Positions 11,658-36,015 of a stretch of 64,000 bases of DNA are shown here, piece by piece. The DNA is from Escherichia coli. GTDB taxonomy: Bacteria > Pseudomonadota > Gammaproteobacteria > Enterobacterales > Enterobacteriaceae. The translations under genes were made by a program, and so were the position numbers. Each line of letters opens with the position of its first letter. The first letter of the stretch is position 1. The notes beneath the pieces were generated by a model. The model saw only the letters and a list, made by a program, of their open reading frames with translations, was not told where the DNA came from and did not search any database. The DNA is taken from NCBI RefSeq assembly GCF_003334315.1, contig NZ_QOWR01000007.1, one strand, 5' to 3'.

Positions 11658-11920
11658 GTAGGTTCTCCCTAACCATTTCTCAATTAAATAATTAATTTTA
11701 ATTTATAAGCCAGATAAATGGGCTTGGTAGTAATAGTTGTTAAAATAACATAAATAGCCGTGCTCACTCTATATAAACAGAAAAGAAAGGTTAATTATTG
11801 GTGTTAGCTATATAAAAAGTAACAACAGCAATGCATATGAATAATTAAAGGTTATGCAACGGGCAAAGATTAAACTTCCCAGTTTAATGACAGGTTGCTG
11901 TACTTGCGTTTGTTGCTCTT

Positions 11921-22913: not shown

Positions 22914-25900
22914 TTACAAACTTCCCGCCTGACGACCTTTGCCCGCAGACGTCAGCGTTCTCCCCGTTTGTTTACCGTTGAGGCTTTCCAGACGCATCTG
23001 GAAGGGCGGGAATGGCATATCGATACCGTGGGCATGGAAGCCAGCCAGAATCAGCTGGTGGATCTCATGGCGTAGCGGCATACGGTGACCCATCTCAGCG
23101 GCATAAATACGCAGCTCGAAAATCTGAATCCCTTGTTGCAGATCCACCAGGAAGACTTCCGGTGCCGGGTTGTCGATCACCAGCGAGCAGCGACGCGCTG
23201 CGGTGAGCAGGATTTCCGTCACTTCTTCACTGTTGGCATCAGCAGGGGCCGGAATCGTCAACACTACGCGCGTGACCGAGTCAGAGAGCGACCAGTTGAT
23301 AAACTGCTCGGTAATAAACGCCTTGTTCGGCACGATTATCTCTTTACGGTCCCAGTCGCTGATGGTGGTGGCGCGGGTGTTAATTTTTGTCACGCTACCA
23401 GTAAGATCGCGGATCGTTACCGTATCGCCAATGCGAATCGGTTTTTCGAACAGGATGATCAGGCCAGAGATAAAGTTGGCGAAAATTTCCTGCAAACCAA
23501 AACCGAGACCAACACCGAGCGCGGCAACCAGCCACTGCAATTTCGACCACTCAATACCAATCATTGAGAAGCCGACCAGCCCGCCAATCAGCATCAGCAG
23601 ATATTTTGTGATGGTGGTGATGGCGTAACCCGTACCCGGCGTTAAATCCAGGTGCTGCAAAATCGCCAGTTCCAGCAGCGCGGGCAGGTTGCGCACCAGC
23701 TGCGTGGTGATGATAAATACCAGAATGGCAATCAGCACCGCACCGAGGGTAATTGGCTCCAGACTTTCTACGCCCTGTACCGTGGAGGTGACATCCCACA
23801 GCGAAATATTTTCGAGGAAGCCGAAAGCGGAATGGATTTCTGACCACAGCACAATGACCGAAAGCAGGGCGATCAACATCAAAATTGAGCGCACCAGCCG
23901 CAAGGATTGCGCACTGATGGCATCGAGATCGACTTCGCTTTCATCGACTTCAATTGCTCCTTCCGGGCTACTGTGATGATGCGCTTCCTCTTCGCCACGC
24001 GCACGTTGCGCTAACATCTCTGCCCGGCGATGCTTCGCCCGGTCAAACGCCAGCCTGCGGCGCTGGATCAGCATCCAGCGGCGGATAACGTGATAAACCA
24101 CCAGTAGCAGGAACCAGATGGCAACCGAGGTTTCAAGCCTCGCTAACAGCGCCTGTGCCGTTGCCAGATAACCCACAGCCGACGCCAGAATGGCAACCAA
24201 CGGCGCGCCAATCATCATGTTCCACAGCATATGGTTGGTAATGTTGTCGCCGCTGCCCTCTTTGTTGAGATACAGTGGGATCCCGGCCTTTTTCAGGCTG
24301 AGGGTGACCACCGCCAGCGCACCGCAAATGAGGATAAAGCAAAGCCGTCCCAGCGAACCGGAGAATTCACGGTCGTCGAGGTTATCGAACATCATCAGCG
24401 CCATAATCAGCGGCACAATAAGCCCGATGCTCATCAGGTAGTAGCGCATCCCACGGGAAACACGTTCGCGCGGCCAGCCAAAATGAGCGATAAACAAGCC
24501 GTTCGGGCGGGCAAAGGTGGCGCAAATCATCACTACCCACAGCAGCGGCACGGTGGCCGTTACGCCATCGCCAATCGCGACCGCCAGCGGATAAGGCCAC
24601 GCCTCGCGCAAGCCGTAACCCAGCGTCATCCACAGCACCGGCAGCGGTGACGCGACGAGAATCGACCAGAAAAGAGTGCGCAACGTCAGCCAGAAGTGAT
24701 CCTGAGTCACTTTGCCGACTTTCGCCGCCGAACGTTCAAGAAAACGGGTGAAATAGCGGCGCGAGTAAATACTGCAACCGACCAGAATCAACGCGCCAAA
24801 CAGCGGCAAAATTGTCTCTTTGCTGGTCAGCATCATCACACTGGCTTTGCCCAACTGACTGAAGGTGTCCAGCGAAATGAGACGACGCAGATCCTGGGCG
24901 ATTTCCAGCGGCCAGGCGATGGTCATCGGGCGCACGTCAGAGGTCCAGAACAGATAGCGGTGCGTTGCTTCGTTCACCTCTTTCAGCGCATCCTCCAGTT
25001 GCCCGTTGGAGACTTTCAGCTTGGTCAGTTCCAATAGTAGCGTGTCGCCACCCTGCAACAATGAGTTCAGCAACTCACGCTGAGTGCGTAGTTGTGCTTC
25101 CAGAATACGGTTTTGCTCGGCGGTCAGCGGCTGACCGTCGGCCTGATGAATTTGCCGTAGCAGCAGCTGTTTATTAAGCAGATCCTCATAACGTAACCGT
25201 TGCACACGCAACTGCGCCATTTCGGTATCAAGCTGTTGTGGTTTCGGCATTTCCGGCAGCCGTGCCACCTGCGCCCGCAACGCTTCGCCGAGCAGGTTGG
25301 ACGATCCCAGCCATTGCGACTGTTCACGCAGCGTATTCAGCGCCTGCCGAACCTGTAACGTCTGGCTGGTGGCCTGGCGCTGTTGCGAGGCAACGAGATC
25401 CATCCGCTGCGCCTGTTGATTCAGTGCCGCCGATAGTTCGCGGTTAATTTTGAATTGCGCGACGATGTCTTTCGGCAAATCGGCGCTGTTTTCTGCCAGC
25501 AATTCGGTACTTTCCAGCGCCCGCTCCGCCTCAAGCTGACGTTGGCTGTTCAACTGATTACGTAAGGCCTGCAAATACGCATCCAGTTGCTGGCTCTCTT
25601 TTTCCGCCAGCTCTGAGCGTAAGCGCGCTAATTCCTGACGGTTATTGGCAGACAGCTGCGCCAGTTCCAGTTCATCAACGAGCGCTTTCAGGCGTGCGGA
25701 GTCAGACTGCAACGCGAAATTTTGTGCCTGATTGAGCGGAGTATTGCCGGTAAGCGTTCCCAGGCGGCGCTCGATCTCATTTAACTGACGGCGGGCGTCG
25801 GTTTGCTGTTGCGGCAGTTGATTCAGCGAATCGGCAATCTCGCGGGCGCGCTCCTGCTCTTGCTGGGCCTGACGGCTTTTATCCAGCAACTGGCTGCTGA

Positions 25901-28470: not shown

Positions 28471-29016
28471 ATGAGTGCCAATGAAAACAACCTGATTTGG
28501 ATCGATCTTGAGATGACCGGTCTGGATCCCGAGCGCGATCGCATTATTGAGATTGCCACGCTGGTGACCGATGCCAACCTGAATATTCTGGCAGAAGGGC
28601 CGACCATTGCAGTACACCAGTCCGATGAACAGCTGGCGCTGATGGATGACTGGAACGTGCGCACCCATACCGCCAGCGGGCTGGTAGAGCGCGTGAAAGC
28701 GAGCACGATGGGCGATCGGGAAGCTGAACTGGCAACGCTCGAATTTTTAAAACAGTGGGTGCCTGCGGGAAAATCGCCGATTTGCGGTAACAGCATCGGT
28801 CAGGACCGTCGTTTCCTGTTTAAATACATGCCGGAGCTGGAAGCCTACTTCCACTACCGTTATCTCGATGTCAGCACCCTGAAAGAGCTGGCGCGCCGCT
28901 GGAAGCCGGAAATTCTGGATGGTTTTACCAAGCAGGGGACGCATCAGGCGATGGATGATATCCGTGAATCGGTGGCGGAGCTGGCTTACTACCGCGAGCA
29001 TTTTATCAAGCTGTAA
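28471..29016 (+). CDS. orn: Oligoribonuclease Orn (181 aa)
   Basis: ORF 28327-29016 trimmed to ATG 28471 ([29 protein letters not shown]...), DEDDh exonuclease. Confidence 0.95.
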
Positions 29017-29141
29017 AATTTTTCCTGGTCACGTAAGCGCCGGAATCCACTTGCGGCGGCGTGATTTTGACGCTAAATTGAACGTCTTGCTGATAATTTC
29101 AGCACTTGAGATAAAAACGCAAAAAAAACTTTTTTGGGGGG

Positions 29142-29169
29142 TTGCAGAGGGAAAGATTTCTCGTATAAT
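29142..29169 (+). promoter_or_regulatory. Putative sigma70 promoter of the tRNA-Gly cluster
   Basis: -35 TTGCAG (29142-29147), 16-nt spacer, -10 TATAAT (29164-29169), GC-rich discriminator GCGCCTCCC, and an A/T-rich UP-like tract upstream (29111-29135). Confidence 0.55.
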
Positions 29170-29226
29170 GCGCCTCCCGTAACGACGCAGAAATGCGAAA
29201 ATTACGAAAGCAAAATTAAGTAGTAC

Positions 29227-29302
<76 letters not shown>

Positions 29303-29338
29303 AAATTTGAAAAGTGCTGCAAAGCACAGACCACCCAA

Positions 29339-29414
<76 letters not shown>

Positions 29415-29683
29415 AATTCTTCTCTCAATAAAATATCCACAGCGACGCGATGCGTTATTGCTGGTTTTTGTTGTCTCTGACAAACTCTTGTAAACAGAGT
29501 TATCCACAGCCTCAGGCTGTAATCTTAATTTCAAAGAAACTTCGCACGGTGAATAGTATTTTTTTAACCTATTGATAGATAAGTTAAAAATTAAGATTCC
29601 GTTTTGTCGAGTCGATCACTTGACGATTTTATTCGTCTTGAATTGCAATGCGTTTTTATTTTTATTCACAAGCTGTGGATGAA

Positions 29684-30821
29684 TCAGGCGTCACGCGGTA
29701 ACCCTTTTTCAATCACCCGAACCAGACGCTGTTTTTTCGGCAATTGCACTTCGACTATGCACGCATTTCGTCTCTCTATTTGCTGCGCAATCGCCCACGC
29801 TATGTGCTCATCGAGAAGTGGGTGCTCACCTTTACGACTTTCCAGCGCTGTCAAAATCGTTTCATCCCAAGGGGCATTGCCTAATGCTACGGCGATATTA
29901 CGCAGCCAACGCAGGTGACCAATACGACGAATCGCCGATCCTTCCGTGACTTTTAAAAACTTCTCTTCGCTCCAGGCGAATAACTCAATGAGTTCCGGTG
30001 CGTGTAGCGGCTTACGCGGGCTGAAATCCTCTTCTGTGGTGAGTTGTGAATAGCGATTCCACGGGCAGATAAGCTGGCAGTCATCGCAACCGTAAATACG
30101 GTTTCCCATTAACGGTCGCAACTCTTCCGGGATCGCCCCTTCAAGTTCGATGGTGAGATAAGAGATACAGCGGCGAGCATCGACGGTATATGGCTCGACG
30201 ATGGCACCGGTCGGGCAAATCGTCATACAGGCCACGCATTTACCACATCCTTCCTCGACTGGTTGATCCACGGGCAGAGGAATATCGACCAGCAATTCGC
30301 CTAAAAAGAAGAACGAACCGGCCTCGCGATTGAGGATAAGTGAGTGCTTACCTGTCCAGCCGAGCCCAGCTTTTTCAGCTAACGGGCGCTCGAGAATAGG
30401 CGCAGAATCGACAAACGGTCTAAAATTCAGCGAAACACAATGTTGCTGAATCATCTCGCCCAGCTTTTTGAGTCGGTTGCGCAGAAGTTTGTGATAGTCA
30501 CGGCCCAGCGCATAACGGCTAACATAGCCGAGTTTGGGGTTTTTCAGCGTGCTGGCAAATGCGGCGTTAGCAGGAAGGTAATTCATCCGCACGCTGATCA
30601 CGCGCAGCGTACCGGGCAATAACTCATGGGGGCGAGCGCGCAGCATACCGTGACGCGCCATCCAGTCCATTTCGCCGTGGTATTGTTTGTCCAGCCATGC
30701 TTGCAGTTTGGGCTCGGACTCGCTGAGATCGGTATCGGTAATACCTACCTGCTGAAAGCCCAGTTCCAGCCCCCACTGTTTAATTTTTTGCGCTAACTGA
30801 TTGAGATCGAGGGGCTCTGAC

Positions 30822-30823
<2 letters not shown>
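29684..30823 (-). CDS. queG: Epoxyqueuosine reductase QueG (379 aa)
   Basis: ORF 29684-30931 trimmed to ATG 30823 (MSEPLDLNQLAQKIKQWGLELGFQQ...); ferredoxin-type Cys clusters (CGKCVACMTICP, CDDCQLICPWN). Confidence 0.93.
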
Positions 30824-32802
<1,979 letters not shown>

Positions 32803-34167: not shown

Positions 34168-36015
34168 ATGCCAATTCAGGTCTTACCGCCACAACTGGCG
34201 AACCAGATTGCCGCAGGTGAGGTGGTCGAGCGACCTGCGTCGGTAGTCAAAGAACTAGTGGAAAACAGCCTCGATGCAGGTGCGACGCGTATCGATATTG
34301 ATATCGAACGCGGTGGGGCGAAACTTATCCGCATTCGTGATAACGGCTGCGGTATCAAAAAAGATGAGCTGGCGCTGGCGCTGGCTCGTCATGCCACCAG
34401 TAAAATCGCCTCTCTGGACGATCTCGAAGCCATTATCAGCCTGGGCTTTCGCGGTGAGGCGCTGGCGAGTATCAGTTCGGTTTCCCGCCTGACGCTCACT
34501 TCACGCACCGCAGAACAGCAGGAAGCCTGGCAGGCCTATGCCGAAGGGCGCGATATGAACGTGACGGTAAAACCGGCGGCGCATCCTGTGGGGACGACGC
34601 TGGAGGTGCTGGATCTGTTCTACAACACCCCGGCGCGGCGCAAATTCCTGCGCACCGAGAAAACCGAATTTAACCACATTGATGAGATCATCCGCCGCAT
34701 TGCGCTGGCGCGTTTCGACGTCACGATCAACCTGTCGCATAACGGTAAAATTGTGCGTCAGTACCGCGCAGTGCCGGAAGGCGGGCAAAAAGAACGGCGC
34801 TTAGGCGCGATTTGCGGCACCGCTTTTCTTGAACAAGCGCTGGCGATTGAATGGCAACACGGCGATCTCACGCTACGCGGCTGGGTGGCCGATCCAAATC
34901 ACACCACGCCCGCACTGGCAGAAATTCAGTATTGCTACGTGAACGGTCGCATGATGCGCGATCGCCTGATCAATCACGCGATCCGCCAGGCCTGCGAAGA
35001 CAAACTGGGGGCCGATCAGCAACCGGCATTTGTGTTGTATCTGGAGATCGACCCACATCAGGTGGACGTCAACGTGCACCCCGGCAAACACGAAGTGCGT
35101 TTCCATCAGTCGCGTCTGGTGCATGATTTTATCTATCAGGGCGTGCTGAGCGTGCTACAACAGCAACTGGAAACGCCGCTACCGCTGGACGATGAACCCC
35201 AACCTGCACCGCGTTCCATTCCGGAAAACCGCGTGGCGGCGGGGCGCAATCACTTTGCAGAACCGGCAGCTCGTGAGCCGGTAGCTCCGCGCTACACTCC
35301 TGCGCCAGCATCAGGCAGTCGTCCGGCTGCCCCCTGGCCGAATGCGCAGCCAGGCTACCAGAAACAGCAAGGTGAAGTGTATCGCCAGCTTTTGCAAACG
35401 CCCGCGCCGATGCAAAAATTAAAAGCGCCGGAACCGCAGGAACCTGCACTTGCGGCGAACAGTCAGAGTTTTGGTCGGGTACTGACTATCGTCCATTCCG
35501 ACTGTGCGTTGCTGGAGCGCGACGGCAACATTTCACTTTTATCCTTGCCAGTGGCAGAACGTTGGCTGCGTCAGGCACAATTGACGCCGGGTGAAGCGCC
35601 CGTTTGCGCCCAGCCGCTGCTGATTCCGTTGCGGCTAAAAGTTTCTGCCGAAGAAAAATCGGCATTAGAAAAAGCGCAGTCTGCCCTGGCGGAATTGGGT
35701 ATTGATTTCCAGTCAGATGCACAGCATGTGACCATCAGGGCAGTGCCTTTACCCTTACGCCAACAAAATTTACAAATCTTGATTCCTGAACTGATAGGCT
35801 ACCTGGCGAAGCAGTCCGTATTCGAACCTGGCAATATTGCGCAGTGGATTGCACGAAATCTGATGAGCGAACATGCGCAGTGGTCAATGGCACAGGCCAT
35901 AACCCTGCTGGCGGACGTGGAACGGTTATGTCCGCAACTTGTGAAAACGCCGCCGGGTGGTCTGTTACAATCTGTTGATTTACATCCGGCGATAAAAGCC
36001 CTGAAAGATGAGTGA
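34168..36015 (+). CDS. mutL: DNA mismatch repair protein MutL (615 aa)
   Basis: [50 protein letters not shown]... (GHKL ATPase). Confidence 0.97.

Follow-up and report, generated by a model that had tools for sequence, protein, structure and literature searches.

The gap between the tRNA-Gly genes and queG raised the question of why the same 9-mer, ATCCACAGC, is found there three times, at positions 29435-29443 (+ strand), 29502-29510 (+ strand), and 29672-29680 (- strand). The preliminary description of this DNA had correctly placed the three copies downstream of the tRNA-Gly genes, and it had offered as explanations an array of binding sites for DnaA or another factor, a decayed repeat, or a part of the terminator region of the tRNA operon. 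In the window, i.e. the whole stretch of 64,000 nucleotides that was analyzed, the RefSeq gene order is rsgA, orn, two tRNA-Gly genes, a 17-codon ORF (yjeV), queG, nnr, and tsaE, and the gap is delimited by the following genes.

29227-29302 and 29339-29414, + strand: two tRNA-Gly(GCC) genes of the glyV-X-Y operon (ARAGORN, Rfam tRNA, and RefSeq)
29684-30823, - strand: queG, tRNA epoxyqueuosine reductase (RefSeq), with the stop codon at 29684-29686, 1 nt past the inverted DnaA box (probable box 4) described below

The observation was confirmed; the gap between the second tRNA-Gly gene and queG measures 269 bp (29415-29683) rather than the 270 bp given earlier, and the third copy lies, as had been noted, 4 nt from the queG stop codon. 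There are two tandem tRNA-Gly(GCC) genes in the present strain versus three in K-12 and one to four in related species, where the tRNA-Gly array is a frequent break point of draft assemblies. A search of Rfam revealed nothing in the region except the tRNAs and a sub-threshold match to YrlA (Y RNA-like) at 29252-29391, which runs across both tRNA-Gly genes and scored 40 bits versus a gathering score of 69; this match is in all likelihood spurious and due to the tRNA-like module in the Rfam model. A promoter scan of positions 28900-29900 gave no match to the sigma-70 consensus.

The simplest explanation would be that the 9-mer recurs by chance in an AT-rich intergenic gap. Clusters of three identical 9-mers arise about 1.3 times per simulated 64-kb window, and the real window contains three others, since GCTGAAACC (in nnr), AATAATTAA, and GCCAGCGCC also occur three times within 270 bp (clusters at 31344-31552, 11687-11848, and 34371-34466); these three may perhaps be due to chance. 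However, when the 269-bp gap was simulated with a Markov-1 model, three or more non-overlapping occurrences of any one 9-mer, both strands counted, arose with P = 0.0035 (P = 0.027 when overlapping low-complexity copies were allowed). Four copies of ATCCACAGC were observed in the 64-kb window versus 0.55 expected, none of 100 shuffled windows reached that number, and in 381 kb of DNA from related enterobacterial loci, the gap excluded, there were only 2 copies, which amounts to 0.34 per 64 kb. Moreover, the motif is the core of the DnaA box, and the sites are both conserved and experimentally characterized (see below). The probability of a chance recurrence is negligible, and the early view that it is unlikely stands. 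The fourth copy of the window is present as TCATCCACAGC at 24626-24636 (the 9-mer starts at 24628), inside mscM and about 4.8 kb from the locus discussed here, datA; as a lone copy it agrees with the roughly 0.5 copies per window that chance would give.

The repeat unit is a DnaA box read 2 bp out of register, as it comprises box positions 3-9 and two flanking bases; the unit as originally framed was thus 2 bp off, and it is the 9-bp DnaA box that is conserved. The two direct copies of the 9-mer have 10 nt in common, TATCCACAGC, and the perfect match to the DnaA box that had been pointed out next to the second copy, TTATCCACA at 29500-29508 (+ strand), was confirmed and corresponds to box 2 of datA. 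Sites with at most one mismatch to TTATCCACA were found four times within 250 bp, at 29433 (+), 29500 (+), 29662 (+), and 29674 (-), and none of 200 simulated 64-kb windows contained four such sites in 250 bp. Only two perfect TTWTNCACA sequences are present in the 64-kb window, versus about 5 expected by chance, and these correspond to boxes 2 and 3, which share a strand. Sites one mismatch away from TTATCCACA, in contrast, exceed the expected number in the window (25 versus 11).

The position of the gap is that of datA, an exceptionally strong DnaA-binding locus that titrates and inactivates DnaA and is located at 94.7 min (PMC10950094, PMC5742627), whose minimal form occupies the intergenic region that follows glyV-X-Y and adjoins queG (PMC10950094, PMC5742627), and consists of boxes 7, 2, and 3 plus one IHF site, all of them essential (PMC10950094, PMC5742627). 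The length of the minimal locus is 183 bp (PMC5742627), although 187 bp (one review) or 262 bp have been given elsewhere; five DnaA boxes have been reported for datA (PMC4585315), and its relative distance on the chromosome is conserved among 59 E. coli genomes (PMC4585315). In the window, the gap lies directly downstream of the glyV-X-Y tRNA-Gly operon and adjoins queG, the 286 nt at 29415-29700 are base-for-base the same as in K-12 MC4100, and positions 29200-29700 are 100% identical to E. coli KO11FL. In addition, seven published primers, or genomic parts thereof, match the window exactly, and the segment 29488-29670 measures 183 bp, equal to the published size of minimal datA. The original locus, described by Kitagawa et al. 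in 1996/1998, is said to have been about 1 kb long with five boxes; exactly five sites with at most one mismatch were found between 29433 and 30339, as in that original description. On the chromosome datA would be expected about 0.47 Mb from oriC, on the same replichore as DARS1. A full-text literature search with the literal box sequences returned irrelevant matches only.

Taken together, these results identify the locus as datA, and we assign a probability of about 95% to the reading that this intergenic region represents the core of datA and that the three 9-mers are its DnaA boxes 1, 2, and, most probably, 4, seen with a 2-bp shift in register. Among the explanations offered at the outset, that of a DnaA binding-site array has therefore been borne out, both by the published descriptions of datA (PMC10950094, PMC5742627) and by the mapping of primers.

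The essential elements of the upstream part of the locus were assigned as follows.

29488-29496, + strand: putative datA DnaA box 7, TTGTAAACA, low affinity, essential
29500-29508, + strand: datA DnaA box 2, TTATCCACA, perfect, high affinity, essential; located by primers and holding copy 2 of the 9-mer
29567-29579, - strand: datA IHF-binding site (IBS), TATCAATAGGTTA; located by primers, its sequence being given in the supplement of PMC4585315

Of the two subDnaAbox2 primers, which swap TTATCCACA for AACATGTGT (Table 2, PMC10950094), one ends at 29499 and the other starts at 29509, so that box 2 is located at 29500-29508. Similarly, the wild-type IBS 70-mer matches 29543-29612 exactly, and the subIBS primer changes TATCAA to GTACTT within TATCAATAGGTTA. 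According to the published description, box 7 is of low affinity, has 2-3 mismatches, and overlaps PyjeV, the putative promoter of yjeV (PMC10950094). We infer that it corresponds to TTGTAAACA, which has 2-3 mismatches, overlaps a plausible -10 sequence of PyjeV, and starts at 29488, giving 183 bp up to the end of box 3. The IHF site is flanked by a perfect 11-nt inverted repeat, AATCTTAATTT (29521-29531) and AAATTAAGATT (29588-29598), and an imperfect 12-nt inverted repeat is present at 29561-29572 and 29579-29590. The 11-nt repeat was considered as a conserved structure around the IBS and discarded, since neither its position nor its sequence is kept in relatives, and the 12-nt repeat is not conserved in relatives either.

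At the other end of the gap, the third copy of the 9-mer is accompanied by a second perfect box, and a further site lies within queG.

29662-29670, + strand: datA DnaA box 3 by inferred numbering, TTATTCACA, perfect TTWTNCACA, essential
29674-29682, - strand: inverted DnaA box TCATCCACA, most probably datA box 4; holds copy 3 of the 9-mer
30331-30339, - strand: TTATCCTCA in queG, candidate box 5 of the original ~1-kb datA locus

All essential datA boxes have one directionality (PMC5742627), and TTATTCACA at 29662-29670 is the sole + strand box downstream of the IBS; therefore, it would be box 3. It is oriented like box 2, from which it is 162 bp downstream, so that boxes 2 and 3, the former placed by primers and the latter by orientation, length, and conservation, are both on the + strand with a single IHF site between them, at a constrained spacing. 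Exactly five sites with at most one mismatch follow one another between 29433 and 30339; the inverted site TCATCCACA, separated from box 3 by 3 bp, comes fourth and, with the sites numbered in order, should be box 4. Since orientation, order, the 183-bp length, and conservation all agree, the third copy of the 9-mer is very probably datA box 4, a site that is stimulatory for DnaA assembly in vitro and not essential in vivo (PMC5742627). The three copies are not equivalent, box 1 being dispensable, box 2 essential, and box 4 stimulatory only, and the preliminary description had overlooked the essential box 3 (TTATTCACA) as well as box 7 (TTGTAAACA) and the IHF site (TATCAATAGGTTA).

The conservation of these elements was analyzed by an orn-anchored scan of one genome per species, which yielded 80 loci from Enterobacteriaceae, Serratia, and Erwiniaceae; 56 of the 80 had at least 400 nt past the last tRNA-Gly gene and, together with the window, provided 54 distinct alignable sequences. 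All nine positions of box 2 were invariant in 54/54 sequences. At box 3, TTATNCACA was kept and only N varied (T in 31, G in 11, A in 10, and C in 2 sequences), the box being perfect in 49/54. The spacing between boxes 2 and 3 was 161 bp in 45/54 sequences, with a range of 159-164 bp. Most positions of the TTGTAAACA region (box 7) were also invariant in 54/54, and the TTGA core of the IBS was invariant in 54/54 or nearly so. Boxes 1 and 4 were less conserved than boxes 2 and 3, as box 1 had 0-1 mismatch in 44/54 sequences and was absent in Serratia and Kluyvera, and box 4 had 0-1 mismatch to TTWTNCACA in 33/54 and was absent in Serratia.

In contrast, all three exact 9-mers were present only in the K-12-type sequence of the window, another E. 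coli species representative having two of them, and in relatives the 9-mer differs in its last one or two positions. Because the exact triple is limited in this way, the conserved objects are the DnaA boxes and not the 9-mer. Conservation of the three copies in close relatives, which had been proposed as a check on their significance, hence failed for the exact 9-mer triple and held strongly for the underlying DnaA boxes. The conservation of boxes and spacing across the family, from Escherichia to Serratia and Erwiniaceae, is of modest confirmatory value, and it widens the published comparison of 59 E. coli strains to the whole family.

The same data bear on the suggestion that the copies are what is left of a longer repeat that has decayed, of the end of a mobile element, or of a tRNA-adjacent attachment site. 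Integration often takes place at tRNA genes, and both direct and inverted copies of the motif are present, as might be expected from such remnants. Nevertheless, the similarity between the copies stops at 10-14 nt, without the extension well beyond a site-sized core or the presence/absence polymorphism of a dispersed repeat or mobile element; from Escherichia to Serratia the gap can be aligned in a syntenic position and contains no insertion, and the 29200-29700 region was matched in all 5426 complete E. coli genomes, with at least 80% covered in 5420 of them. A decayed repeat is extremely improbable, and this explanation can be abandoned in favor of the DnaA boxes of datA.

The third copy also lies within an annotated ORF.

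29648-29701, + strand: yjeV, 17-codon ORF, MRFYFYSQAVDESGVTR (annotation), overlapping boxes 3 and 4 and the 3' end of queG

The ORF is the one named yjeV in the datA papers, and the location of the third copy within it would be compatible with that copy having been conserved as the codons for A-V-D of YjeV instead of for DnaA binding. However, about half of the 54 relatives lack the start ATG of yjeV and the length of the ORF ranges from 3 to 32 codons, and yet the TTTTTATTTTTATNCACA and TGTGNAT motifs persist. Since the reading frame is not conserved, the conservation of the DNA within yjeV suggests a constraint on the boxes as DNA sites rather than on a peptide, and a coding origin of the third copy is very unlikely.

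The first copy of the 9-mer differs from the other two in its overlap with a terminator, and a second hairpin begins within box 2.

29426-29473, + strand: intrinsic terminator/attenuator TglyV-X-Y (RNA fold; flanked exactly by deletion primers)
29433-29441, + strand: datA DnaA box 1, ATATCCACA, one mismatch; located by primer mapping and holding copy 1 of the 9-mer
29506-29520, + strand: small hairpin ACAGCC-UCA-GGCUGU (fold of -9.1 kcal/mol, z -2.72), beginning within box 2

TglyV-X-Y is known to overlap DnaA box 1 (PMC10950094), and box 1 is dispensable for datA-dependent hydrolysis of DnaA-bound ATP (DDAH) and contributes to the attenuation of read-through transcription (PMC10950094). In the window, the G+C-rich stem CCACAGCGACGC-GAU-GCGUUAUUGCUGG occupies 29437-29464 and is followed by the U-tract UUUUUGUUG; the hairpin begins 23 nt past the end of the tRNA, and its fold has an energy of -14.3 kcal/mol (z -2.84). 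Deletion with the primers delter_L and delteronly_R, which flank about 29432-29458, removes ATATCCACA, that is, box 1. In copy 1, CCACAGC forms the 5' arm of the terminator hairpin. Therefore, the proposal that the repeat belongs to the terminator of the tRNA operon is correct for copy 1, which is part of TglyV-X-Y, and not for the other copies.

These structures raised the alternative that the full 9-mer recurs because of RNA hairpin stems and not because of protein binding, its 'CAGC' tail providing the 5' arms of the two hairpins. In agreement with this alternative, both hairpins beat shuffled sequences at the z values given above, and it probably explains why the match extends 2 bp past the DnaA box in copies 1 and 2; thus, the 'GC' after box 2 in the present strain is probably accounted for by the ACAGCC/GGCUGU hairpin. 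Nevertheless, hairpin stems leave the ATCCACA core, the inverted third copy, and box 3 unexplained, TTATCCACA is invariant in 54/54 sequences while the bases that follow it vary, and relatives retain the boxes without the sequence of the second hairpin, which is not conserved among them (the columns past 29509 are variable). RNAalifold on the 54-sequence alignment gave no consensus structure for the terminator, for the box 2 hairpin, or for a hairpin at 29604-29626. As an explanation of the whole recurrence, RNA structure is unlikely; the hairpins complement DnaA binding and do not replace it.

The possibility that the 'GC' flank is the site of a second factor was also considered and rejected, since the base after box 2 is G in 50/54 sequences and the next one is G, A, or C, and all three exact 9-mers are found only in the K-12-type sequence. 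In the 54-sequence alignment, boxes 1 and 2 both have a conserved G as the next base, and the oriC boxes R1 and R4 likewise have a G in this position.

The alignment of the 54 sequences further revealed a conserved block between the IBS and box 3.

29614-29624, strand not assigned: near-invariant block GATCRCTTGAC, which contains GATC (54-sequence alignment)

A hairpin at 29604-29626 was found by per-sequence folding to be specific to E. coli, and what is conserved is the sequence GATCRCTTGAC; because the hairpin is not conserved, the constraint on this block acts on its sequence. Within 29598-29642, a TGTTA motif lies about 5 bp upstream of the block (TGTCG in E. coli) and TTGAA is present at 29638-29642. 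No assigned role for the block was found in the descriptions of datA that were searched. A further factor has been invoked in 2024 for the timing of IHF binding to datA (PMC10950094), and it is conceivable, though doubtful, that GATCRCTTGAC is the site of that factor, or a Dam/SeqA-sensitive element, or a low-affinity site for ATP-DnaA.

Since the sequence is identical to that of K-12, DnaA and IHF would be expected to bind at this locus and DDAH to take place as published for K-12. According to this model, ATP-DnaA would occupy the same-oriented boxes 7, 2, and 3 (PMC5742627, PMC10950094), its assembly being aided by box 4, as reported in vitro (PMC5742627). After initiation, IHF would bind between boxes 2 and 3 and bend the interval of roughly 160 bp (PMC5742627), so that the DnaA complexes bound at box 2 and box 3 could then contact each other and DnaA-bound ATP would be hydrolyzed (PMC5742627). 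The ADP-DnaA released would be inactive, and extra initiations would be repressed (PMC5742627). Before initiation, read-through transcription from the tRNA promoter is proposed to cross datA and to keep IHF off (PMC10950094), and the terminator, box 1, and box 2 would reduce the basal level of this read-through and thereby control the timing of IHF occupancy at datA (PMC10950094).

The cluster of three 9-mers is therefore a real, functional, and well-characterized element that was already known, and its novelty is low. Reportedly, datA has been known since 1996 and is still actively studied, and DDAH is said to have been described by Kasho and Katayama in 2013. The recognition of datA from raw sequence indicates that a scan of this kind can detect true regulatory DNA, and it adds nothing to existing knowledge of the locus. 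Together with oriC, DARS1, and DARS2, datA is one of the four chromosomal elements that set the DnaA ATP/ADP cycle, and through this cycle the once-per-cycle timing of replication in E. coli.

When compared with datA of K-12, the locus analyzed here occupies the same place between the same flanking genes and has boxes 1, 7, and 2, the IBS, and boxes 3 and 4 in the order and orientation described; there is no functional difference, and the upstream tRNA-Gly genes are present in two copies instead of three. The resemblance to oriC resides in the high-affinity TTATCCACA boxes that flank an IHF site and in the bending by IHF that aids the formation of ATP-DnaA oligomers (PMC5742627). However, a duplex-unwinding element is not part of datA as described, boxes 2 and 3, about 160 bp apart, are much more widely spaced than R1 and R5M of oriC (PMC5742627), and the outcome at datA is the hydrolysis of ATP as opposed to unwinding at oriC (PMC5742627).

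DARS1 and DARS2 are, like datA, non-coding chromosomal clusters of DnaA boxes that alter the nucleotide state of DnaA, and DARS2 shares with datA the use of IHF (PMC5742627, PMC4585315). Their effect is the opposite, as ADP is released from ADP-DnaA by means of a three-box core (I-III) (PMC5742627, PMC4585315); moreover, DARS2 has Fis sites, and DARS1 and DARS2 are located elsewhere on the chromosome (PMC5742627, PMC4585315). Finally, the DnaA box at the asnC terminator (Schaefer & Messer 1988/89), according to its citation in PMC10950094, acts as a roadblock or attenuator, as has been proposed for boxes 1 and 2 of datA. In contrast to the asnC box, attenuation at datA is a side role, and the main function of the locus is the inactivation of DnaA.
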